Of a stretch of DNA of 64,000 nucleotides, positions 1,522-49,568 are shown piece after piece. This stretch comes from Escherichia phage vB_EcoP_IMEP8. How positions within the stretch are numbered: the first letter of the stretch is position 1; the number at the start of each line of letters is the position of its first letter. The DNA lies in sequence record NC_070993.1; one strand, 5' to 3'. Made by a program: the position numbers and the translations under genes. The notes under the pieces were generated by a model, which worked only from the letters and a program-made list of their open reading frames with translations, was not told the DNA's origin and made no database searches.

Positions 1522-1995
1522 ATGTTTGGAGAAAACGGAGAACTCACACCTGCACAGGTAGCTGAGATTACAGGAAGATTACCCGGAGTAACGGAAGAAC
1601 TTGAAGGCCGTGGTATGAACCCAAGCAATGGGAAGTTTCAAAAGGGAAATAAATTCGGACGACCCAGAGGTAGTAGAGGTAAACTGACACAATTAATGTT
1701 GGACCGTGTTGCTGCAAGTCATTTGTCTCCTGATGAAGTGTTAATTCAAATTTACGAAGATCCTAATATTCCACCTGATCTTAGATTCAAGGCTGCATCA
1801 AAAGTTGCAGATCTGGTATATCCTAAGGCGGCCTCTGTTGAAGTTAAGATTGAGGAAGAGAATGTAATCAACGAAGAATCATTGAATGCACAAATCAAGG
1901 ACTTCTTGACTGGAGCACTTGGTATCGACGTTATGCCTCCAGAAGAAGACAACTCTGAGGACGCTGAAAAGGGGGAGGAAGCGGACGAGAGTTAA
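1522..1995 (+). CDS. putative terminase small subunit (157 aa)
   Basis: Position immediately upstream of large terminase; HTH-like N-terminus (TPAQVAEITG), basic middle, acidic C-terminus; RBS AGGAG before the ATG. Confidence 0.45.
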   Translation: MFGENGELTPAQVAEITGRLPGVTEELEGRGMNPSNGKFQKGNKFGRPRGSRGKLTQLMLDRVAASHLSPDEVLIQIYEDPNIPPDLRFKAASKVADLVYPKAASVEVKIEEENVINEESLNAQIKDFLTGALGIDVMPPEEDNSEDAEKGEEADES

Positions 1996-2111
1996 TTAAA
2001 GGAAGCTGTATGGGTGCTGGATTTTAAGTTAACCAGACTACAGCGAATAAGAGAGGGGGAGGTTCTTTGACGAAGGGACTTTCCCTTTTCTATTTTTAAA
2101 CTGGAGGAAGT

Positions 2112-3653
2112 ATGTCATTAGATAAACAAATTTATGAAGCTCTAACTGGTAACAACCTTAGTGTAGATGAAAAGAAAGCACTATTGAATATGTTGAAAGA
2201 GCGTGACCAATGGAGGAAGTATAATAGGATTTTGTCTTTCAAGGCGTATGACTTCCAAAAGAAATTTTATGCAGCAGGATTGAAGCATCGCTTTAGATTC
2301 TTGTGTGCAGCGAACCGTGTTGGTAAATCTTATAGCGAGGCATACGAGTTTGCTTGTCATGTCACAGGTCGCTACCCAACTTGGTGGACAGGGTATAAAT
2401 TTAAAAGACCTATCTTAGCATGGGCAGTAGGTATTACAGGGGATTCCACAAGGAAGGTATTGCAAAAGGAATTGTTTGGTACACCTATCGGAAAGGATAC
2501 AAATTTATTAGGGACAGGTGTCATTCCTCGTGATGCTATCGTCATTGATACGATAGAACGAGATGGTAACAAACTTCAAATCGTACAAATCAAACATCAA
2601 AATGAGAGAGGAGAGTTTGACGGTTTAAGTACATTAGAATTCCGTTCAACCCAACAGGGTGAACACACATTGATGGGTGCAACAGTTGACTACATTTGGT
2701 TAGACGAAGAAGATCCATACGAGTCTATGGCTATATTCGCACAGTGCGTCACACGTACACTCACAACTAAAGGTCTAGTTACAATTACAGCTACACCAGA
2801 GAACGGTTTAACTGAACTGGTAGATAAATTTATGAAAGGTGAAGGGGATGAGAGCACAGGTTCTCTATATTTCCAGAATGCTTCTTGGTGGGATGCTCAT
2901 GCAGACCTAGGTGGACATATCACTGACCAAGATATAAAAGATATGACTGAAGGTATTCCAGCGTGGCAGTTAGAGATGCGTTCAAAAGGTATGCCATTGT
3001 TAGGAAGTGGTTTGATATATGATGTACCGGATGACACAATTAAATGTGAACCATTCGAAATTCCTGATACGTGGAAACGTGTCTGTGCAATTGATATTGG
3101 TATTGATCACCCAACTGCTGCTGTTTGGACAGCTTACGACGCAAACACGGATACTATCTATGTTTACGACTCATATAAAGAAGGTGGCTTTACTCCAGTG
3201 TATCATGCTCCAGCTATTAATGGTCGTGGTCAGTGGATTCCTGTCATCCTACCGCATGATGCGGACAATATTGAGAAAGGTAGTGGCTCATCTGTTGCTC
3301 AGTTCTATAAGAATGCAGGAGTTAACGTACAGAGTGAGACCTTCTACAACAAAATTGGAATGGATGGTAAAAAGAACTTCTTTGTAGAACCGGGAATCAC
3401 AGATATCCGAGAAAGAATGATGAGTGGACGCTTTAAAGTCTTTAACACAGCCGCTAACGCTAAGCTATTCGAAGAGAAAGCTAGATATCACCGTAAGGTT
3501 GGTAAGATTATTAAAGAACATGATGACTTAATGGATGCAATGCGCTATTCAGCGTGCTCTGTTACACATCGTGGTCGCTCTAAGCATGATGTTAGCTACG
3601 GAAGCGCTTCTTTGTATGAGGCAAACGTAAGCAGATGGAATCAGAGCTACTAA
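2112..3653 (+). CDS. terminase large subunit (513 aa)
   Basis: Walker A-like NRVGKS, Walker B-like IWLDEED, RNaseH-like nuclease region (AIDIGIDHPTAAVW); size and position typical of TerL. Confidence 0.9.
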   Translation: MSLDKQIYEALTGNNLSVDEKKALLNMLKERDQWRKYNRILSFKAYDFQKKFYAAGLKHRFRFLCAANRVGKSYSEAYEFACHVTGRYPTWWTGYKFKRPILAWAVGITGDSTRKVLQKELFGTPIGKDTNLLGTGVIPRDAIVIDTIERDGNKLQIVQIKHQNERGEFDGLSTLEFRSTQQGEHTLMGATVDYIWLDEEDPYESMAIFAQCVTRTLTTKGLVTITATPENGLTELVDKFMKGEGDESTGSLYFQNASWWDAHADLGGHITDQDIKDMTEGIPAWQLEMRSKGMPLLGSGLIYDVPDDTIKCEPFEIPDTWKRVCAIDIGIDHPTAAVWTAYDANTDTIYVYDSYKEGGFTPVYHAPAINGRGQWIPVILPHDADNIEKGSGSSVAQFYKNAGVNVQSETFYNKIGMDGKKNFFVEPGITDIRERMMSGRFKVFNTAANAKLFEEKARYHRKVGKIIKEHDDLMDAMRYSACSVTHRGRSKHDVSYGSASLYEANVSRWNQSY

Positions 3654-3658
3654 AGTAA

Positions 3659-3688
3659 GGGGGAGGTTTGTCCTCCCTTCTTTTATTT
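3659..3688 (+). terminator. putative terminator or attenuator
   Basis: GGGAGG-TTTGT-CCTCCC hairpin followed by a T-rich run after the TerL stop. Confidence 0.4.
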
Positions 3689-3714
3689 AAGCTATCAACC
3701 GAGGGAGAGAATAG

Positions 3715-5958
3715 ATGGCTAAGCAAAAATATAGTGAAGAGGTGTTGGACGAGTTACGTGTTGACCTTCAACGTCGTTTTAATTACGCTCAAGGTTACGT
3801 TGACATGGCTGTTAAGGGCTATGCTCGTGAAGCTTGGGAATATTTCTATGGTAACTTACCTGCACCAGTAACTGCTGGCAGCTCTAGTTGGGTAGATCGT
3901 ACTGTTTGGGAATCTGTTAACGGTACATTGCAAGATATTATTAACGTATTCTGTTCTGGTGATGAAGCAGTTACTTTTGTGGCTGACAACCAACAGGACT
4001 CTGATGCTGCTGATGTAGCAACTAAACTAGTTAACCAAATTCTTCTGCGTGATAATCCGGGATACAATATTATCTCTTCTGCTGCACAAGAATGTCTGGT
4101 TACTCGTAACTCTTTTATCAAATATTATTGGGATGAGCACACTTCTACTCAAACTGAAGAGGCTGAAGGTGTACCACCGGAAGCATTAGCTGCATATGTT
4201 CAGGGATTAGAAGCTGGTGGACTCAAGAATCTGGAAGTCTTCACTGAAGAAAATGAAGATGGTACAGTTGATGTTAAAGTTACTTACGAACAAACTGTTA
4301 AACGCGTGAAGGTTGAATATGTTCCTTCAGAGCAAATCTTTGTTGACGAACATGCTACCTCTTTTGCAGATGCACAATACTTCTGTCATCGTGTACGTCG
4401 TTCTAAAGAAGATCTGGTTGCTATGGGCTTCCCTAAAGATGAGATTGAAGCATTCAACGACTGGACAGATACGATGGATACTACTCAATCTACAGTTGCT
4501 TGGTCTCGTACTGACTGGCGTCAGGATATTGATGCTGATATTGGTACAGATACCGAAGATATCGCTTCTATGGTTTGGGTTTATGAGCACTACATTCGTA
4601 CTGGTGTTCTAAATAAGAATAAAGAGTCTAAACTCTATCAGGTTATTCAAGCTGGTGAGCATATCCTTCACACTGAAGAAGTAACTCACATTCCGTTTGT
4701 AACCTTCTGCCCATATCCTATTCCGGGTTCCTTCTATGGTCAATCAGTCTATGACATTACGAAAGATATTCAAGATTTACGTACCGCGTTAGTTCGTGGT
4801 TATATTGATAACGTCAACAATGCTAACTATGGTCGATACAAAGCTCTTGTTGGTGCATATGATCGTCGCTCTCTGCTTGATAACCGTCCCGGTGGAGTGG
4901 TTGAAATGGAACGTCAGGACGCTATTGACCTGTTCCCATATCATAACCTACCTCAAGGTATTGACGGCCTCCTAGGCATGTCTGAGGAGCTTAAAGAGAC
5001 ACGTACAGGTGTAACCAAACTAGGCATGGGTATCAACCCTGATGTGTTTAAGAATGATAACGCTTATGCAACCGTAGGCTTGATGATGAATGCTGCACAG
5101 AACCGTCTCCGTATGGTATGTCGTAACATTGCTCACAACGGTATGGTTGAATTGATGCGTGGTATTTACAACCTTATCAGAGAAAATGGTGAAGTTCCTA
5201 TCGAGGTACAAACCCCTCGTGGTATGATTCAGGTAAATCCGAAACAATTGCCAGCTCGCCACAATCTTCAAGTTGTTGTAGCTATCTCTCCTAACGAGAA
5301 AGCAGAACGTGCACAGAAACTGATTAGCTTGAAACAGCTGATTGCAGCAGATGCACAGTTAGCACCTCTCTTTGGTTTGGAGCAAGACCGTTACATGACT
5401 GCACAGATCTTTGAGTTGATGGGTATTAAAGATACTCATAAATACCTTCTGCCTCTGGAACAGTATCAGCCTCCTGAGCCGTCTCCGATGGAAATCCTCC
5501 AGCTCGAGATGACTAAAGCACAGGTTGAGAACGTACAGGCTTCTTCTCAGAAGATGATTGCTGATGCATTCGACCAACGTGAACGTACTACATTCGAACA
5601 GCAGAAAGCTGCGGATGAATTAAGTCTGCGTCAGGAAGAGTTGCAGTTCAAGCAAGAAAATGCAGCAGATGCAATGACTCTGGAAAACCGTAAAGAAGAT
5701 AACAATGCTACTCTGGAACAAGCTAAGCACAAGTTAGCTCTTATGCAACAGCAGGTCCGTCAGTATGAATCTGTACTGAAAGAATTGCAGATGGTTATGT
5801 CTCATCAGGTAGACCAAGAGAAGATTGTTCAGCAAGCTCGTGTTCAGGATAAAACTTTGGAACTCCAAAAGAAAGAGGCTAATGTAACTAAGAAAGAGCA
5901 ACAAGCTTCTCTCAAAGATTCACGGATTCCAGGCAAACGTCTTGGAAGTAAAAACTAA
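3715..5958 (+). CDS. portal protein (747 aa)
   Basis: Large protein between TerL and scaffold; C-terminal coiled-coil/charged tail; canonical gene order. Confidence 0.75.
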   Translation: MAKQKYSEEVLDELRVDLQRRFNYAQGYVDMAVKGYAREAWEYFYGNLPAPVTAGSSSWVDRTVWESVNGTLQDIINVFCSGDEAVTFVADNQQDSDAADVATKLVNQILLRDNPGYNIISSAAQECLVTRNSFIKYYWDEHTSTQTEEAEGVPPEALAAYVQGLEAGGLKNLEVFTEENEDGTVDVKVTYEQTVKRVKVEYVPSEQIFVDEHATSFADAQYFCHRVRRSKEDLVAMGFPKDEIEAFNDWTDTMDTTQSTVAWSRTDWRQDIDADIGTDTEDIASMVWVYEHYIRTGVLNKNKESKLYQVIQAGEHILHTEEVTHIPFVTFCPYPIPGSFYGQSVYDITKDIQDLRTALVRGYIDNVNNANYGRYKALVGAYDRRSLLDNRPGGVVEMERQDAIDLFPYHNLPQGIDGLLGMSEELKETRTGVTKLGMGINPDVFKNDNAYATVGLMMNAAQNRLRMVCRNIAHNGMVELMRGIYNLIRENGEVPIEVQTPRGMIQVNPKQLPARHNLQVVVAISPNEKAERAQKLISLKQLIAADAQLAPLFGLEQDRYMTAQIFELMGIKDTHKYLLPLEQYQPPEPSPMEILQLEMTKAQVENVQASSQKMIADAFDQRERTTFEQQKAADELSLRQEELQFKQENAADAMTLENRKEDNNATLEQAKHKLALMQQQVRQYESVLKELQMVMSHQVDQEKIVQQARVQDKTLELQKKEANVTKKEQQASLKDSRIPGKRLGSKN

Positions 5959-38291: not shown

Positions 38292-40136
38292 TTAGTGTGT
38301 ATGCATCCAGTTAAGTCCAATCTGACAATCAGATGCCAGAGGACATTCCATGTTCAAATACTCACCAGCTTTCTTAACACAAAGCTCAGTGTGTTCTTTG
38401 AGTTTCTGTACATCATTACGGTTCACTGAGAACTGACCCTCGTCGTGCATGTCAATTACTTTAGCACAACGAACCCCATCTTTCTCAATCCACTTGTTAA
38501 GGAACATCATAGCATATTTCATAACAACAGCACCAGCACATTGCAGGAGTGTGTTAAGTGCTTTATGAACCATAACTTTGCCAGTGGCATCTCGTCTCAT
38601 TGTAATCTTACGGCCATCAACGCCAATCAAGTATCCTTGAGCAGCTTTCTCTGTCATACGATCAATGAGGATTGCAATACATGGGTTCTCTGCTAAGAAA
38701 CGTGCTCGCATCACTGAACCTTCGTCAGCCCCACCACCTACAATTGAACCGAGCTTAGCATCACCAGCACCATAGTTGAATGCGTAGATAAACGTCTTAG
38801 CGTTGTCACGAGTAGGAAGACCAGCAAGTTTCTGGTTGTGGGAGTGGATATCACCTTCAAGGAGAATATCACGATACATAATAGCAGAAGCTAAACCACG
38901 CTCTGCCAGAGCTTTCTTAGCTGGATTATTCTCTTCGATTGCTTCAGCAAGCATATCCCTACACTCTTTAATGAGGTAGTGTGCAAGCATACGCAACTCT
39001 AATCCAGAACCATCATACCCTAAGAATACTTCTTTACCAGCGGGTATGTAATATTTGTAAGCACCTACAGGTTTATCTTTCTTCCCCGGCTTACCTTTCT
39101 CATAAATTACGTTAGTACCTTTTCGTATATAACAACCATCAGGAACAACGTTAGTAATAATGAAAGGACGAGAGTGATCATCATCTGAGTTATAGTCAGA
39201 CTCAAACAAACCGCGACACTCATGACCAAACAAACCACGGGAGGGAATATTAACCACGATACGATGTTTGAATCGAAAAGTCGGCGTAGCGCAGCTGTTA
39301 GCTTCTGCCGAAAGTTTACCATCTTCGCGTTCCTTTGCTATGAGTCCACTGATAAGACCTAGCCTGTGAGCCGCTACAACGCGTCTCTTAAGCAAACTCC
39401 CGACACTCCCTAGCTCACCCCCTAACCCTTCTTCAAGAGTCTCCTCGAGGTTTGTAGGAGCTGTAGGCCACTTGTTTGAAGTAGCTAGTGCTATCTTAAT
39501 CTCATCAAAAGTGATAGGCCTGCGTCGGTTAGGATTTAAACCTAAACCAAATACATAAGCCTTCATGTAGTTCTTAGTTTTAAACCTAAAATGCTTCTCT
39601 AAGAACTTCCTAATGTCAGCGTCAACCATCTCGGCTGTCTGTTTCTGTTTAGCATTACCTCGCATCCAAGCTGAATACCATGCTTGGTATGTTCCATACT
39701 TTCGCATATCTTTCTTGATTTCAAAAGTATTCCAAGGTTTCTTTGATACGTTAAACTCTGGAGGAAGAAAACCCTCATCCATAAGGGCTTCTTTAACTCG
39801 TGCATCTTTCGATGGGTCAAAGTCTACGTATTCAACACAGGTGAATGCTCCACCAATGTCTTCTCTCTTAAGACCAACTCTATCGCAATAGACTTGAGGC
39901 CACTTCTGTAAAGCTCCAGACTTCTTAAATGGCTTCATATAAGTAGAGCCATCTAATCTCATCTTAGGTAAGAGAGGAATCAGTTCTTTGTCAATATTAA
40001 CAATAATCTCTTTAAGGAGGTGAACATACCACCGAGCATTTCTTCGGTTGAAACTCACTCCGTGCTTCGCTTGCTTAGAGATTATATCAGCGACAGTCAT
40101 CTCTGTCAAAAATGGGAGAGCGTCCGGGTTGCTCAC
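38292..40136 (-). CDS. DNA polymerase, family A, polymerase domain only (614 aa)
   Basis: Motif A LGYDGSGLELRMLAHY, motif B RDNAKTFIYAFNYGAG, motif C VIDMHDEG; no 3'-5' exonuclease motifs in this polypeptide. Confidence 0.9.
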   Translation of the reverse strand: MSNPDALPFLTEMTVADIISKQAKHGVSFNRRNARWYVHLLKEIIVNIDKELIPLLPKMRLDGSTYMKPFKKSGALQKWPQVYCDRVGLKREDIGGAFTCVEYVDFDPSKDARVKEALMDEGFLPPEFNVSKKPWNTFEIKKDMRKYGTYQAWYSAWMRGNAKQKQTAEMVDADIRKFLEKHFRFKTKNYMKAYVFGLGLNPNRRRPITFDEIKIALATSNKWPTAPTNLEETLEEGLGGELGSVGSLLKRRVVAAHRLGLISGLIAKEREDGKLSAEANSCATPTFRFKHRIVVNIPSRGLFGHECRGLFESDYNSDDDHSRPFIITNVVPDGCYIRKGTNVIYEKGKPGKKDKPVGAYKYYIPAGKEVFLGYDGSGLELRMLAHYLIKECRDMLAEAIEENNPAKKALAERGLASAIMYRDILLEGDIHSHNQKLAGLPTRDNAKTFIYAFNYGAGDAKLGSIVGGGADEGSVMRARFLAENPCIAILIDRMTEKAAQGYLIGVDGRKITMRRDATGKVMVHKALNTLLQCAGAVVMKYAMMFLNKWIEKDGVRCAKVIDMHDEGQFSVNRNDVQKLKEHTELCVKKAGEYLNMECPLASDCQIGLNWMHTH

Positions 40137-43819: not shown

Positions 43820-44040
43820 TTCACAACCTTAGATTTGAACGTTGTTGGGTGATAGTAGTGCAACCTGTTGATGGTGTGCTTGGTTTCAAGATATATCCTA
43901 CAAGAGTGACACATGACATGAGACAGACCAGTCACAGGGTTGGGTTTGAAGTTGGCGATAGGCTTCTCTTTCTTACAGAAGCTACACATTTTCTTATCCA
44001 TCTTTTCTCCTGCTAATCCTCTGAGTTGTGGGAACAGCAA
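43816..44040 (-). CDS. small zinc-finger protein (74 aa)
   Basis: CSFC...CHSC motif pair. Confidence 0.4.
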   Translation of the reverse strand: MLFPQLRGLAGEKMDKKMCSFCKKEKPIANFKPNPVTGLSHVMCHSCRIYLETKHTINRLHYYHPTTFKSKVVK

Positions 44041-44146
44041 TATTCACATACTCCACAACAAGGGCAAATTTCTACACTTGGGTCATATGCATCATCAACC
44101 GTCATCCCACACTTAGTGCAGAACACATCGTCATCTTCTTCCAACA

Positions 44147-44803
44147 TTAATTCTCCAAAGTTTTCTTCAGAGCTGCCCACGAGATTGGGTAGAGTTTAGC
44201 CATCTCTTCATCCAGAGATTGAGCAAACACTCGAACTTCGTATTGAGCGTGAGAGGAGAGTCGCTGACGACATAACTCAAACCAGCCATATAAAGAACCA
44301 GTCCACACCCACTCAGTGATCATTCCCTGAGGAAGAACAAATCGAGCTTGCTCTGGTGCAATAAATTCAATCAACTTGTCATATGCTGCTAGAGAAGCTT
44401 CATATGCATTGTTAATCAGCATTAATGCTTCAGCTCGTTCTCCATCGATGAGTTGAACCCCTGAACCTGCATGGAGGTCCGAAGGTCTCGCAAAAATCTC
44501 TTTAGGGATGAAGACTTCAACTGCTCCATCTTTATACCGCCGGGACATTTCGTTCCACGAGAATCCAACCTGATGCTTGCCCAGCTGTCTCGCAATTGCG
44601 ATAGGTGCTTTGCATCGGAAACTGACTTGTGGGTGTCGGAATGGAGTAACATGCTTCTCTCTTGCGAGGAAGTTGATGAGACGTTCATCACGTTCATTTA
44701 AATCACCTTCACGGGTTACGCCAAAGGAAACTCGAGCTGCGTTTACTACGCTATGATCACTTCCCATAGCTTCGATTAATGTTGCTTGTAATTGTTCATT
44801 CAT
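44147..44803 (-). CDS. thyX: flavin-dependent thymidylate synthase ThyX-like (218 aa)
   Basis: HVTPFRH...KAPIAIARQ...NEMSRRY aligns with the ThyX core, but the canonical RHR triad position reads KHQ. Confidence 0.7.
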   Translation of the reverse strand: MNEQLQATLIEAMGSDHSVVNAARVSFGVTREGDLNERDERLINFLAREKHVTPFRHPQVSFRCKAPIAIARQLGKHQVGFSWNEMSRRYKDGAVEVFIPKEIFARPSDLHAGSGVQLIDGERAEALMLINNAYEASLAAYDKLIEFIAPEQARFVLPQGMITEWVWTGSLYGWFELCRQRLSSHAQYEVRVFAQSLDEEMAKLYPISWAALKKTLEN

Positions 44804-44818
44804 CCGTGAATATCCTTA

Positions 44819-45094
44819 TTATTTATTGCCCAGAGCTGTATCCAAAAACGCTTTCAGGTTTGCTTCAGTCTGCATACCAGAGAGGCTATAGTGTGCACCA
44901 CTATTACGGTCAGGTACCACGAAAGCAGGAATGCTTCGTACACCATACTTAACAGCTTGTTCACGACCATCACCCTCAAGGATGTTAATCTCTTCTACTT
45001 CTACATCAAACCCCTTAACAACCTTTTCAAAGGTAGGAGCCATTGCTTTACATGGAGCACACTGATCGCTATAGAACTTAATTACTTTAGACAT
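44819..45094 (-). CDS. thioredoxin (91 aa)
   Basis: CAPC active site in thioredoxin-fold context (FYSDQCAPCKAMAP). Confidence 0.8.
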   Translation of the reverse strand: MSKVIKFYSDQCAPCKAMAPTFEKVVKGFDVEVEEINILEGDGREQAVKYGVRSIPAFVVPDRNSGAHYSLSGMQTEANLKAFLDTALGNK

Positions 45095-45102
45095 GTAAAT
45101 CC

Positions 45103-45282
45103 TTATGCAGTCAGGAGGTGAAGTAGGAATGGGATAACAACAGCTACGACAACCATGATGGTTGATGCTGTTTGAATCTCACCTTTCTTATCAGGTGTTT
45201 CTTCAATAAGCTTACCAGAAGCCCAATAAATACCACCACCGATAAAGATAGCCCAAATACCCCATACGATTGCTGATAACAT
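45103..45282 (-). CDS. small two-TM membrane protein (59 aa), not in ORF track
   Basis: Hand translation MLSAIVWGIWAIFIGGGIYWASGKLIEETPDKKGEIQTASTIMVVVAVVIPFLLHLLTA; RBS AAGGA upstream. Confidence 0.45.
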   Translation of the reverse strand: MLSAIVWGIWAIFIGGGIYWASGKLIEETPDKKGEIQTASTIMVVVAVVIPFLLHLLTA

Positions 45283-45342
45283 ATATCTATATCCTTATAA
45301 ATAAGTTCGCCCCACCTCGGGTTAGGAGACAGGGCGGAGGTT

Positions 45343-45906
45343 TTAGTAAGACACATCACCACTTGAGTGGGACATGTTGCTCTTGACAAAGTAGCAATAC
45401 TTGCCAAGACCTTCATTAATTTCTTGAAGCATACTCTGATCAACTGGATAAGTGGCTAAATCACCATCAAACTCATCCATCTTCTCAATAATACACATCA
45501 AGGTCATGCACATATCAGAGAGCATACCGTCCATGTCTAGGTCAGCATTACCCTCTGAGAACCAAGCATGAGAAAGATAATTGGCTGCTGTAGCGTCCAC
45601 TTTAACACAGTGGTAACGCATACGTTCAGCAATACGATCTCCTACTTGTCGTGCGTAATCTTCCAGCTCATCAAACATACCATGAACACCCTGAAATCCT
45701 GCACCAGAGACGTTCCAGTGGTAGTTTTTAGCTTTGATATGCAAGAGTTCCATGTTAGCTTGTAAGCAGCTCAGGATGTGTTCTAGGCTGTTTCCACTAA
45801 TCATACCCTGCATCGTTTCGAGGCGAGAGATTGAAAGCTCAGACCGGTCTAACATATTATAGTCGGCACGACCAATCTCAGGTAAGTCAAAGACATTCTT
45901 ATGCAT
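45343..45906 (-). CDS. Dps-like ferritin-fold protein (about 187 aa)
   Basis: KNYHWNVSGAGFQGVHGMFDELEDYARQVGDRIAERM matches the Dps ferroxidase helix pair (compare E. coli Dps [20 protein letters not shown]...TMAERA). Confidence 0.65.
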   Translation of the reverse strand: MHKNVFDLPEIGRADYNMLDRSELSISRLETMQGMISGNSLEHILSCLQANMELLHIKAKNYHWNVSGAGFQGVHGMFDELEDYARQVGDRIAERMRYHCVKVDATAANYLSHAWFSEGNADLDMDGMLSDMCMTLMCIIEKMDEFDGDLATYPVDQSMLQEINEGLGKYCYFVKSNMSHSSGDVSY

Positions 45907-46228
45907 TTGGGTTATCTCCATCAAGTTCAACTGAATTAGCAACGTTACGTTCGATGTTTGCCATCACCTGCTGGGTAATTACGATGCAGTTCTGTGGGTC
46001 TACTGACTTAGAACGTCCCATTTCAGGGTCATACACCTTAACTCGCTTAGCAGTTGAACCTGTGACCTGAAGAACCTTCAACAGATACCCCTGATTACCA
46101 ATAGACCAAGCAACAACATCACGATTCTTGATAAAGCGACCAAGCATATCACGATGATAAAACTGTTGCATCACCTTGGATTTTGTAATCTCTTCAGTGG
46201 GCGGGGCCACTTTACTCAAATCTAACAT
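45899..46228 (-). CDS. hypothetical protein (109 aa)
   Basis: ORF from track; variant promoter-like motif AAATGTATA 40 nt upstream. Confidence 0.45.
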   Translation of the reverse strand: MLDLSKVAPPTEEITKSKVMQQFYHRDMLGRFIKNRDVVAWSIGNQGYLLKVLQVTGSTAKRVKVYDPEMGRSKSVDPQNCIVITQQVMANIERNVANSVELDGDNPNA

Positions 46229-46300
46229 AACTCTCTCCTGTAAAATACAAATTCTTATTGTACTCTATATACATTTGAGAGTTACCATATCTACTACCAA

Positions 46301-46510
46301 TCAGTAGTAAACATTCCGAGATAGCATACAAGTACCTTCTGAGAATTCAATCCAACGATGTATGCTAACATGTTCAACTGTACCGACCAGAGCTTTCATA
46401 TTCTTTTTAGCAATACGAGCATCTTTACGGGTGTCAAATAATTTGATATTATCTTTACCTAGATGGTGTCCATCTTCCCAAACAATACGAATAGCCCACA
46501 TCTTTTTCAT
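46301..46510 (-). CDS. small protein, member 3 of tandem paralog triplet (69 aa)
   Basis: Shares ...TR..AR...K...V...SIH...S.G...VYY pattern with two upstream ORFs. Confidence 0.45.
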   Translation of the reverse strand: MKKMWAIRIVWEDGHHLGKDNIKLFDTRKDARIAKKNMKALVGTVEHVSIHRWIEFSEGTCMLSRNVYY

Positions 46511-46719
46511 CAGTAATGTACCTTTCCGCTGACATAAACACGACCAGAGGAATACTCTCTGGCCTTATGGATGCTGATACTATTGACCACGTCACCAGTA
46601 AGCATAGTCTTTTTAAAATCTCGAGCTTGTTGGCGAGTTGGTAGTGCAGTCATAGTCATACCACCTGATGCCCACTTAATCTTTGCTAACCAAAACTGTC
46701 TCATAGTGATTGGTCTCAT
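46510..46719 (-). CDS. small protein, member 2 of tandem paralog triplet (69 aa)
   Basis: Same conserved pattern, ends ...VHY; 1-nt start/stop overlaps with neighbours. Confidence 0.45.
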   Translation of the reverse strand: MRPITMRQFWLAKIKWASGGMTMTALPTRQQARDFKKTMLTGDVVNSISIHKAREYSSGRVYVSGKVHY

Positions 46720-46916
46720 TAATAATAAACCTTGCTGTTGGCAAAAAGAGCACCTTCGTTATTCACAATAGCTTTTCCTATTGTAACCTTGTTAAGTCTA
46801 AAAGTAGACTTGTATTGATTTTTGACCCTACGTGCGTGATCTCGAGTCTTAACAAAATCTACAGCTACCAAGTCTCCAGTCATGTTATCATGTACACGAA
46901 CAATCCACTTTTTCAT
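46719..46916 (-). CDS. small protein, member 1 of tandem paralog triplet (65 aa)
   Basis: Same conserved pattern, ends ...VYY. Confidence 0.45.
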   Translation of the reverse strand: MKKWIVRVHDNMTGDLVAVDFVKTRDHARRVKNQYKSTFRLNKVTIGKAIVNNEGALFANSKVYY

Positions 46917-47119
46917 TTTACTAAACCCTTCATGTAGTCATAAAGATCAATCGAAGCTTTACCCCATTCAAAGTGCTTCTTATCCATATAGCTCTTACAA
47001 GCTTCTTTACTGCTTTCGACGCATGTATCAAATTGATGACATGCTCGACCAAATGTAATAGCTTTTAATTGAACCTCGGTAGTCAAACCTTTCAGTTCTT
47101 GGAACTCTTCTTCAGTCAT
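46913..47119 (-). CDS. hypothetical Cys-containing small protein (68 aa)
   Basis: ORF from track; 4-nt overlap with the triplet. Confidence 0.4.
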   Translation of the reverse strand: MTEEEFQELKGLTTEVQLKAITFGRACHQFDTCVESSKEACKSYMDKKHFEWGKASIDLYDYMKGLVK

Positions 47120-47653
47120 TTACACACCTTTAGATGCAACTACACCTTCAGAGTTATTATAACGACCCTTCACTGCATAAGAATGTTCCCCTGCATGAGA
47201 GTGCTCAAACATCACCATCTGACCAACACGCATACCAGCACGAACTCGTAAGCTATGGTGCTTTGTTACGTTATGGAACTCAAATGTCAGCTTACTGCTG
47301 TTAAATCCAGCGTCTGCCCATCCAGCATGTAGGTGGTTCAAACCACAACGAGCCATGGACGAACGCAAAACAAACAGACTTGAGATGTTATCTGGAAGAT
47401 TAAACTCCTCCATAGAGTGAGCCAAGAAGAACTGACCCGGAGTAATAACCAAACCCTCTTCAGGAATTTTTACTTCCTTCCACTGAAGATTCTCTTTCGC
47501 ATCAATATCAACGATGCCATCAGCCTGTTCTTCAACAAGGATAGTATCACCAATACGGATATCCACACTAGCAGCGTTAACATACTTATGCTCCGCATCC
47601 AGATAGCCATTGTCAATTACATCGTGTAGTTCAACACTTCCTAGTAAACTCAT
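47120..47653 (-). CDS. dCTP deaminase / dUTPase-superfamily enzyme (177 aa)
   Basis: SVDIRIGDTILV and GQFFLAHS...SSMARCGL segments typical of the dCTP deaminase/dUTPase beta-jellyroll family. Confidence 0.65.
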   Translation of the reverse strand: MSLLGSVELHDVIDNGYLDAEHKYVNAASVDIRIGDTILVEEQADGIVDIDAKENLQWKEVKIPEEGLVITPGQFFLAHSMEEFNLPDNISSLFVLRSSMARCGLNHLHAGWADAGFNSSKLTFEFHNVTKHHSLRVRAGMRVGQMVMFEHSHAGEHSYAVKGRYNNSEGVVASKGV

Positions 47654-47662
47654 TCTTATTCC

Positions 47663-49012
47663 TTAGTTATTTGTTTCCATGTCAAAAGAAATTCCACGAC
47701 CCGCTTCATCGGCAAACCGAACTGTACGGGTTTGAGGCTGCAATACTTCAGGGTTATCAGCAACAAAACGATCAGCGAGACTGCGACTGACAGTCTCAGC
47801 TAATTCACCATGAGAAGGGATATCAAGATCACCAACAGTGGAACTCTGAGCAGAGGCTTCATCAGTCCATACAGCCCTAACAGGTGCGTTGAAACTCTGA
47901 CCAGAGAACTGGTGACGGTTAACAGTCAAACCATTTGATTGATCATTAGAACGTCTAGACAACCACCGCTCAAATGAATCGCTAGTAACACCAAGAGCTT
48001 CTTCAAAAGATGTTCTACGAGTAGAGCTTAGGTTTCGTGCCTCTTGTGCTCGACGTCTTGCAGGTACTGCAAACACCCCTTCAATTGCATTGTGTCGGTT
48101 AGGTTCATCTTCCCGACCAAGCAGATCACCACCTGTGTTAGTTGTTAAGTTTGTCAATCCTTCAGACCAATACGCATGAATCTGGCTAGAGCCGTGAAGA
48201 TTTGACATAACCTGAATCTCTTCATAAGGTATACCAAAGAATCGACTCATATCTCGGTTAACACAATACTGAGCACTTGTTGTATCTTCAAGAAGAGCAA
48301 CCTGACCTAGTTCGTTGACCAGATGACTAACCGATTGAGGTGTGGGAAGATATCGAGTTTGGGCCATGTATTGATGTGCAACTGCTGGAGAGGAAAATCT
48401 CAACACTTGCGAGTTAGGCCACTTCTTGTGAACGTATCTGATTTCACGACTAGAAACAACCACCGGGCAAGGGGCGGTCATCGCCAAGTATCCATGAGAA
48501 GTCATGAATAGGCTGTCAAGAGTCATCGCACCACGGCACATCATAGGGAAATTGTCCATTACTTCTTCAATAGAAGTAGGATAGTTAAACATGAATTGAA
48601 TTCGGGTTCCGTTCCACTGGAACTCAATAATATCAGTGAAAGTTAATTGGGAACCTTCGGCATAAGTCTCATTCGTAGCTTCAGCCAGAAGGGAAGCATA
48701 CTCGATACCTTGTGATTCAAGCCACTCTTTCACATTACTTTCAATTTCTCTTCCAAGATCTTGCCAACGATCAGTTGGGATGAAATAGTTTTGGGTTCTT
48801 GGTGCCTGTCCTCTGACAATAAAGATATCAATGTCATGTGGAGCTGTGTTATTAAGTACAGCATCACGAACAGCCCCACCAGTAATGATGGGACAAATAC
48901 CGTCTGGAATCAAGTTGTTGTCAATTAATTGTTCAATGAAGTGACGACCAACAGTGATATCAGGTTGTTGAGCAACCTTATCTTCAATTCGGTTAATCGG
49001 GATAACAATCAT
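47663..49012 (-). CDS. tRNA nucleotidyltransferase / poly(A) polymerase-family (Pol-beta-like) enzyme (about 449 aa)
   Basis: Head-domain signature ITGGAVRDAVL...HDIDIFI (GGxVRD...DxD); ATG at 49012 immediately after the upstream stop. Confidence 0.65.
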   Translation of the reverse strand: MIVIPINRIEDKVAQQPDITVGRHFIEQLIDNNLIPDGICPIITGGAVRDAVLNNTAPHDIDIFIVRGQAPRTQNYFIPTDRWQDLGREIESNVKEWLESQGIEYASLLAEATNETYAEGSQLTFTDIIEFQWNGTRIQFMFNYPTSIEEVMDNFPMMCRGAMTLDSLFMTSHGYLAMTAPCPVVVSSREIRYVHKKWPNSQVLRFSSPAVAHQYMAQTRYLPTPQSVSHLVNELGQVALLEDTTSAQYCVNRDMSRFFGIPYEEIQVMSNLHGSSQIHAYWSEGLTNLTTNTGGDLLGREDEPNRHNAIEGVFAVPARRRAQEARNLSSTRRTSFEEALGVTSDSFERWLSRRSNDQSNGLTVNRHQFSGQSFNAPVRAVWTDEASAQSSTVGDLDIPSHGELAETVSRSLADRFVADNPEVLQPQTRTVRFADEAGRGISFDMETNN

Positions 49013-49013
49013 T

Positions 49014-49568
49014 TTACATTTTCCAATATAATGAAGGTGGGTCGTAAGGGTCAAATCCTGTGAGTTCACACAAGAAAAGATAAACCTTAACAGTTAAGTT
49101 AACGTCCTGTTCACAGTAAGTAAACATATCTTCAGTGAAAGCATCCCATGCTTCCTCTTGCTCACCGTAATCTCCTTTAAGTTCCTCTAAGAACTCACCC
49201 CATTGCTTCAAACCATGACCTCTTGGGCCATGTCTAGGGTCGCCTTTCGGATACTCAGGACTATCACCAATACGGTCAGGTTTAAGATATCGACTAAGAC
49301 ACAGAGTGTCAAAGACGTTAAAATGATATTTAATCAAAGATGGATACATCTTCTTCAGAGCACAAAGGTCGAAGTCAATGATGTTATGACCCACGAGCAC
49401 ATCAGCTTCTGTAAGTTTACGAATCCCATCTTCAATTTGGTGAGGCCGATAGCCCCACCTTTCACCAGTTTCAACATCGAATATGTAAATACACCACACT
49501 TTAGTTATGTCATCGTACAGTGCATTACTCTCGATATCAAATGCAAACACTTTCTTTTTCTTTACCAC
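49014..49568 (-). CDS. stand-alone 3'-5' exonuclease (DnaQ/DEDD-like; 184 aa)
   Basis: Exo I-like FAFDIESN and downstream acidic motifs ([18 protein letters not shown]). Confidence 0.65.

Follow-up and report, generated by a model that had tools for sequence, protein, structure and literature searches.

Genes at the locus

We analyzed a locus of Escherichia phage vB_EcoP_IMEP8 that encodes a Dps-like ferritin, a thioredoxin, and a small membrane protein, within a 64,000-nucleotide stretch of sequence record NC_070993.1 (hereafter, the window). An earlier note, made from the sequence alone, had described these genes as a cluster in a nucleotide-metabolism region and suggested that the phage may bring its own redox/iron-handling set. 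The three open reading frames (ORFs), their coordinates, and their motifs were all correct, and the flanking ThyX and dCTP deaminase genes confirmed the nucleotide-metabolism context. A sequence search with the region 44000 to 47700 returned approximately 60 Kuravirus-like genomes with 91 to 96% identity, the closest relative being phage 172-1 (95.6%), and the source phage is a Kuravirus, i.e., a phiEco32-like E. coli podophage with a C3 prolate head (Gordonclarkvirinae). All genes of the region are on the minus strand, in the transcription order dCTP deaminase, four small ORFs, a 109-amino-acid (aa) ORF (P109), Dps, a 59-aa ORF, thioredoxin, and ThyX (Table 1).

Table 1. Genes and signals of the locus, together with the phage DNA polymerase
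Feature	Coordinates	Strand	Evidence or role
Dps-family mini-ferritin, 187 aa	45343-45906	-	Pfam Ferritin, phrog_3636, PDB and Foldseek matches
P109, basic protein, 109 aa	45899-46228	-	phrog_10984 (1.4e-64); corresponds to SU10 CDS68
Thioredoxin, 91 aa, N-terminally truncated	44819-45094	-	Pfam PF00085 (1.2e-12)
Protein with two transmembrane segments, 59 aa	45103-45282	-	phrog_9296 (3.7e-34), hydropathy
ThyX, flavin-dependent thymidylate synthase	44147-44803	-	Pfam Thy1 (3.1e-43)
dCTP deaminase	47120-47653	-	Context gene, nucleotide metabolism
Middle-promoter motif AAATGTATATA	46266-46276	-	10/11 match to the phiEco32 gp36-sigma motif
Terminator-like hairpin, 11-bp stem	45308-45336	-	Terminator scan, folding
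T7-like family-A DNA polymerase, polymerase domain only	38292-40136	-	T7 gp5 match (1.3e-32)

The 187-aa protein is a Dps-family mini-ferritin

The Dps-like protein was confirmed to carry the motif KNYHWNVSGAGF..HGMFDE..RIAERM. Its start codon is the ATG at position 45906, with a GGAG ribosome-binding site, and the TTG at 45942 is merely the mechanical start of the ORF. The match to the Pfam family Ferritin (PF00210; E = 2.5e-7; 31.1 bits against a cutoff of 24.5) spanned the N-terminal half of the protein only; the match to phrog_3636 had an E value of 2.6e-55. Searching the PDB sequences with phmmer gave Dps matches only, with M. smegmatis Dps2 on top (2.6e-9). Since the protein scored far below the NCBIfam cutoffs for Dps equivalogs, we regard it as a divergent family member and not as an equivalog of E. 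coli Dps.

A monomer model, predicted by AlphaFold2 (AF2) from an input alignment with 14 homologs, reached a pLDDT of 79.9 (81 to 97 in the core) and contained helices A (residues 41 to 65), B (71 to 98), C (125 to 150), and D (154 to 176), along with a short BC helix (107 to 112). When the model was compared to the PDB by Foldseek, the top 50 matches were Dps proteins throughout, with target TM-scores of up to 0.92. In the alignment with Dps of E. coli MG1655, residues H63, W64, H75, D79, D90, and E94 fell exactly on H51, W52, H63, D67, D78, and E82, which are the ligands of the inter-subunit ferroxidase center of E. coli Dps and the adjacent Trp52. The ligand residues and W64 were unchanged in the 14 phage homologs, at identities down to 48%, and the H/H/D/E columns agreed in 147 of the 148 Dps family representatives aligned after an exhaustive profile search. 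The protein is thus a genuine Dps-family mini-ferritin, as the earlier note had supposed from the motif, with a full set of ferroxidase ligands, and the residues whose loss that note had named as speaking against its reading are conserved.

Compared to the bacterial Dps proteins of E. coli, Listeria innocua, M. smegmatis (Dps2), B. anthracis (Dlp-1/2), and S. aureus, to which it is approximately 20 to 27% identical, the phage protein shares the four-helix bundle and its short BC helix, the identical ligand spacing H-12-H-4-D-11-D-4-E, and also the neighboring Trp. Unlike them, it has an acidic, clade-specific N-terminal extension of approximately 40 aa, lacks Lys-rich tails, and is encoded by a middle gene coupled to a 109-aa partner. 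With host E. coli Dps it shared only a 41-aa high-scoring segment pair (HSP); recent capture from the host was therefore rejected, and the gene is an old phage gene.

Many Kuravirus records in GenBank call the gene "integrase", RefSeq has "DNA binding protein", and only a few records use "ferric iron binding protein" (labels checked included KP308307.1 ORF86, NC_070986.1, and MZ398243.1). The first of these labels is a propagated misannotation. The second is unsupported, because the protein has an isoelectric point (pI) of 4.72 and no basic tail at either end: the first 45 residues hold 4 Lys/Arg against 7 Asp/Glu, and the C-terminal tail SNMSHSSGDVSY is not Lys/Arg-rich either. Such a tail for DNA binding is a trait of some Dps members, E. 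coli Dps among them, and does not define the family; its absence here makes direct DNA binding by the phage Dps unlikely.

Dps is translationally coupled to P109

The stop codon of P109 overlaps the Dps start in ATGCATAA, and Dps is translationally coupled to P109. While Dps is acidic, P109 is basic (pI 8.8). The retrievable homologs of P109 were all close (72 to 99%), and its AF2 model, with five strands and a C-terminal helix, was of low confidence (pLDDT 61.7). Foldseek matches of this model to SH3-like, PWWP, and KOW folds were weak, all with E > 0.01. P109 lies directly upstream of Dps, with overlapping or abutting stop and start codons, in Kuravirus, Privateer, LAh_8, and GAP52, and its distribution in C3 phages mirrors that of Dps. 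We rejected a universal pairing of the two genes, given that Vibrio phage SJSY21 has a weak P109-like ORF (E = 4e-3) that is not followed by Dps.

Transcription signals bracket the P109-Dps unit. The motif AAATGTATATA, read from 46276 to 46266, lies in the 72-bp gap ahead of P109 and resembles the phiEco32 motif tAATGTATAtA; according to the SU10 paper, CDS68 is preceded by a middle promoter of the sigma70/phage-sigma type (PMC4281155). As no enrichment of the phiEco32 sigma motif was found across the window, the promoter assignment relies on its position and on the SU10 paper. A scan of the region for sigma70 promoters gave fewer sites than in shuffled sequence. At the other end, the hairpin directly follows the Dps stop codon, with a T-rich tail next to it, in the only sizeable intergenic gap of the neighborhood. 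Its folding energy (-15.9 kcal/mol; z of -1.6 against shuffles) was only marginally better than that of shuffled sequences, and it is supported by a stem that is unchanged between Kuravirus and Suseptimavirus SU7 while the loop differs. With a promoter motif upstream of P109 and a hairpin after Dps, these two are the first genes of the middle unit and probably the ones with the strongest expression.

The 91-aa protein is a minimal thioredoxin-fold protein

The thioredoxin with a CAPC site reported in the earlier note was recovered with 48.2 bits against a Pfam cutoff of 23.5, its active site being C12-A-P-C15 and its cis-Pro I55-P56. It aligned with residues 24 to 107 of E. coli TrxA (33% identity), with which it shares the thioredoxin fold from beta2 on, the CxPC site, and the cis-Pro; the first approximately 21 residues (beta1-alpha1) are absent. 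The canonical architecture of five strands and four helices with beta1-alpha1, WCGPC, and buried Asp26 was not found, the phage version having QCAPC where TrxA has WCGPC. Both Cys residues and the cis-Pro were invariant in six aligned sequences, and all C3-phage thioredoxins had the same N-terminal truncation and carried a Lys in place of the Asp26 that is buried in TrxA. The protein also scored far below the NCBIfam equivalog cutoffs for TrxA and TrxC. By its sequence, it is a minimal thioredoxin-fold protein and not a TrxA equivalog. Its nearest relatives outside the C3 phages were the short thioredoxins of T5-like phages (phrog_22), which are of similar length and 34 to 42% identical. In T5-like phages and in LAh_8, the thioredoxin accompanies phage ribonucleotide reductase (RNR) genes, whereas Kuravirus has no RNR.

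One role offered by the earlier note, that of reductant for ThyX chemistry, was rejected on the basis of established chemistry: flavin-dependent thymidylate synthases are reduced by NAD(P)H through FAD and not by thiols.

The 59-aa membrane protein is lineage-specific

As the earlier note pointed out, the ORF track had missed the 59-aa protein. This is explained by its length, which falls one residue short of the 60-aa threshold in common use for ORFs. Hydropathy analysis placed its two hydrophobic segments at about residues 1 to 22 and 36 to 59. The SU10 and SU7 records list the ORF as hypothetical, and it should be considered a real gene because its length, frame, and two-segment topology are kept in Suseptimavirus SU7 at a nucleotide identity of 62%. 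No homolog was found near Dps in Privateer, LAh_8, or SE131. The gene is therefore specific to Kuravirus and Suseptimavirus, and its membership in a conserved trio was rejected. The view of the three genes as one redox/iron set could thus not be upheld; the conserved neighbor of Dps is P109.

Phage 172-1 contains additional small ORFs (ORF81, ORF83, and ORF84; positions 1812 to 2666 of the compared locus) around its thioredoxin gene ORF82, compared to the window and SU10, and the segment from Dps to ThyX is on this evidence a hotspot of small-gene gain and loss. Just upstream, in the same block, lies a gene for a 468-aa nucleotidyltransferase (47663 to 49069, minus strand; phrog_12715) with a weak PolyA_pol head/class II CCA-adding enzyme domain.

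The phage polymerase has an insertion at the thioredoxin-binding site of T7 gp5

The earlier note had also suggested that the thioredoxin could be a processivity factor for the family-A polymerase. This polymerase turned out to be T7-like, its closest solved relative being T7 gp5, with a BLASTP HSP between its residues 12 to 134 and T7 residues 217 to 362. In three-way MAFFT alignments that included T7 gp5 and Pol I of E. coli, an insertion of approximately 46 aa in the thumb was located exactly at the position of the thioredoxin-binding domain (TBD) of T7 gp5, where Pol I has none. The thioredoxin-binding loop of T7 consists of 76 residues in the thumb, between helices H and H1. The phage insertion is approximately 20 to 30 residues shorter; its flanks resemble the TBD, and approximately 20 central residues, comprising a basic segment, are missing. 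Compared with T7 gp5 and Pol I, the polymerase also has other large insertions, roughly at residues 135 to 260 and 320 to 370. The 3'-5' exonuclease is encoded by a separate gene (49014 to 49568).

From these comparisons, a function of the phage thioredoxin as polymerase processivity factor is plausible, and it has already been proposed in the literature (PMC7881722). It could further be hypothesized that this structural function, as a subunit of the T7-like polymerase in the way that host TrxA serves T7 gp5, is the main job of the thioredoxin and that its linkage to Dps is incidental. The relationship to T7 gp5 and the TBD-like flanks of an insertion that Pol I lacks are in line with this, as are the co-occurrence of thioredoxin and insertion in both Kuravirus and Lahexavirus and the lack of a phage RNR that a Kuravirus thioredoxin could serve. 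However, the insertion has no counterpart of the basic loop at the center of the TBD, the pairing of the two proteins is drawn from sequence comparison, and the host already supplies TrxA. Moreover, the CxxC motif, which is not needed for the T7-type processivity function, is strictly conserved in the phage thioredoxin. The co-occurrence is not discriminating either, because LAh_8 has the same polymerase insertion together with a thioredoxin that adjoins class I RNR genes; this location, along with the T5-like thioredoxins as nearest relatives outside C3 phages, suggests a reductase role. As a control, we searched for a C3 phage without the thioredoxin or without the insertion, and none was present among those examined. 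A mainly structural role is, in our assessment, a serious possibility that falls short of being probable.

Dps belongs to a dNTP-supply block ancestrally associated with NrdD

Dps was detected by tblastn in all C3-podophage lineages (Kuravirus and relatives, Privateervirus, Moazamivirus SE131, Crifsvirus GAP52, and Lahexavirus), always inside the nucleotide-metabolism/replication block, and also in ~130-kb Streptomyces phages and one cyanophage. The other C3 proteins (SU10 gp67, phiEco32, Privateer gp068, GAP52_062, SE131 gp090, and LAh_8 gp125) are products of the same gene with 31 to 100% identity, and have previously been described as DPS-domain or Dps-family proteins (PMC4281155, PMC7881722). 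The earlier remark that a Dps-like protein is unusual in a lytic phage did therefore not hold: the gene is conserved across the C3-podophage lineage, was reported in 2014 (PMC4281155), and occurs in other phages too (PMC8008677). Compared to the other C3 phages, Kuravirus-like phages have an extra N-terminal segment on Dps, an inverted order relative to thioredoxin, and no NrdD.

The gene order of the relatives was informative in this respect. In Cronobacter phage GAP52, dCTP deaminase, thioredoxin, P109, Dps, and NrdD follow each other in this order, each abutting the next with overlapping stop and start codons (positions 1877 to 5589 of the compared locus). Privateer encodes a 98-aa protein after Dps (3898 to 4194) that is 52% identical to residues 1 to 90 of GAP52 NrdD, the ATP-cone. 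The order in LAh_8 is NrdD, PhoH, DprA-like, NrdG, one small ORF, P109, Dps, and a gene annotated as ATP-cone family (3929 to 4201). SE131 has P109 after thioredoxin and Dps after ThyX. No NrdD or NrdG was detected by tblastn in the window or in SU10, and the SU10 annotation contains no RNR. Together, these results showed that the ancestral order was dCTP deaminase-thioredoxin-P109-Dps-NrdD, that Kuraviruses have lost NrdD and NrdG, and that the conserved association is thioredoxin-P109-Dps within a dNTP-supply block, ancestrally beside the anaerobic RNR.

This raises the question of whether Dps and thioredoxin could be what is left of a module that worked for the oxygen-sensitive NrdD/NrdG of ancestral C3 phages by scavenging O2/H2O2 and iron and by providing reducing power, with Kuravirus keeping a reduced or shifted role. 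Such an origin would fit the contiguous genes of GAP52, the NrdD ATP-cone piece after Dps in Privateer, the position of P109-Dps between NrdG and the ATP-cone gene in LAh_8, and the absence of NrdD and NrdG from Kuravirus. On the other hand, Dps, P109, and thioredoxin are highly conserved in approximately 90 Kuravirus-like genomes without NrdD, and the codon differences between the window and SU7 were mostly synonymous (P109, 41 synonymous and 10 non-synonymous; thioredoxin, 33 and 18), so their function cannot depend on NrdD. The SE131 Dps, moreover, follows ThyX and not NrdD. We find it rather unlikely that this module accounts for the genes.

Dps is detected in purified virions of two C3 phages

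In two C3 phages that have diverged from each other, Dps has been found in virions purified on CsCl. Shotgun mass spectrometry (MS) of purified SU10 identified it with 35.8% coverage and 6 peptides, together with CDS68 and thioredoxin, which shows that all three are expressed (PMC4281155), and it was among the proteins of CsCl-purified Privateer virions (PMC7881722). These data could indicate that Dps is virion- or DNA-associated, packaged with or bound to the genome and possibly tethered by the basic, SH3-like P109, in which case it would protect or organize the DNA inside the long prolate capsid or during entry and would not be a cytoplasmic detoxifier. The opposite charges of P109 and Dps, their translational coupling and co-distribution, and the weak similarity of the P109 model to small barrels that bind nucleic acids all agree with such a role. 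However, the MS of SU10 also detected DNA polymerase, the sigma factor, and PhoH (PMC4281155), and thus reflects carry-over of abundant non-structural proteins. A study of SU10 by cryo-electron microscopy and band MS assigned gp20-24 as the internal/ejection proteins, with Dps unmentioned, and an iron-loaded cage could by itself co-band with phage in CsCl. Furthermore, Dps has no basic tail, and the barrel matches of P109 come from a low-confidence model with Foldseek E values above 0.01. An association of Dps with the virion or its DNA is, on this evidence, improbable, the MS signal and the conserved P109 being the only features that hint at a less ordinary role. Very doubtful is the extension of this idea to a two-protein module of prolate C3 podophages, in which P109 would tether the acidic, tail-less Dps cage to DNA or the capsid interior and an active ferroxidase nanocage would travel with the genome in the virion or at entry. 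If true, the virus would carry its own shield against iron and peroxide, of a kind described for no phage.

A proposed role in iron and peroxide detoxification

On balance, residue conservation and gene context lead us to favor, with moderate confidence, a dodecameric Fe2+/H2O2-scavenging Dps cage that would guard phage replication and the dNTP supply once the host is shut off, with the thioredoxin acting as reductant, as cofactor of the polymerase, or in both ways. Judging from the Dps proteins of solved structure, Dps would most likely assemble into a 12-subunit cage, whose predicted inter-subunit di-iron sites would oxidize Fe2+ with H2O2 and store the iron. Both Fenton reagents would thereby be removed during phage DNA replication, when host OxyR/Dps is presumably no longer inducible. 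The thioredoxin would most likely be a disulfide reductase that aids dNTP synthesis by the host RNR, since the phage encodes none, and it may also bind the thumb insertion of the polymerase as a T7-style processivity subunit.

Several observations weigh against this proposal. Dodecamer assembly, iron binding, and the use of H2O2 are all read from the conservation of residues, and our literature search turned up no study that addresses the function of a phage Dps. Detoxification does not predict Dps in purified virions of two divergent C3 phages (PMC4281155, PMC7881722). It also leaves the clade-specific N-terminal extension of Dps and the coupled P109 unaccounted for. With regard to the thioredoxin, its redox properties may differ from those of TrxA, given the Lys in place of Asp26 and the missing beta1-alpha1, while the polymerase insertion lacks the center of the TBD and the control search yielded no C3 phage lacking either partner.

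Parts of this picture were known. Mirzaei et al. (2014) listed CDS65 (thioredoxin), CDS67 (DPS-domain), and CDS68 among eight middle CDSs common to all five C3 phages then known (PMC4281155); Corban and Ramsey (2021) proposed the thioredoxin as processivity factor of the T7-like polymerase in Privateer (PMC7881722); and Benler et al. (2021) pointed to Dps genes in gut phages, Gratiaviridae among them, as well as in Lactobacillus phages, and suggested a role in oxidative stress (PMC8008677). The SU10 and Privateer papers regarded Dps and thioredoxin as common to all C3 phages and detected both by MS. Dps and thioredoxin in this genus, and hypotheses on both, have thus already been published. 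What is added here is the coupling of P109 to Dps, the ancestral gene order with the loss of NrdD, and the shorter polymerase insertion at the TBD site. The interpretation in the earlier note was borne out for Dps and thioredoxin, is plausible for the link to the polymerase, and had to be given up for the ThyX reductant, the unusualness of Dps, and the three-gene set. As the window adds a near-identical copy of known genes, its value for discovery is modest.

Nevertheless, Dps is a conserved and probably highly expressed middle gene throughout a phage lineage on which therapy-oriented collections draw. If its ferroxidase role were confirmed, this would correct the widespread misannotation of the gene as "integrase" or "DNA binding protein", and it would show that productive infection requires iron and peroxide to be kept under control.

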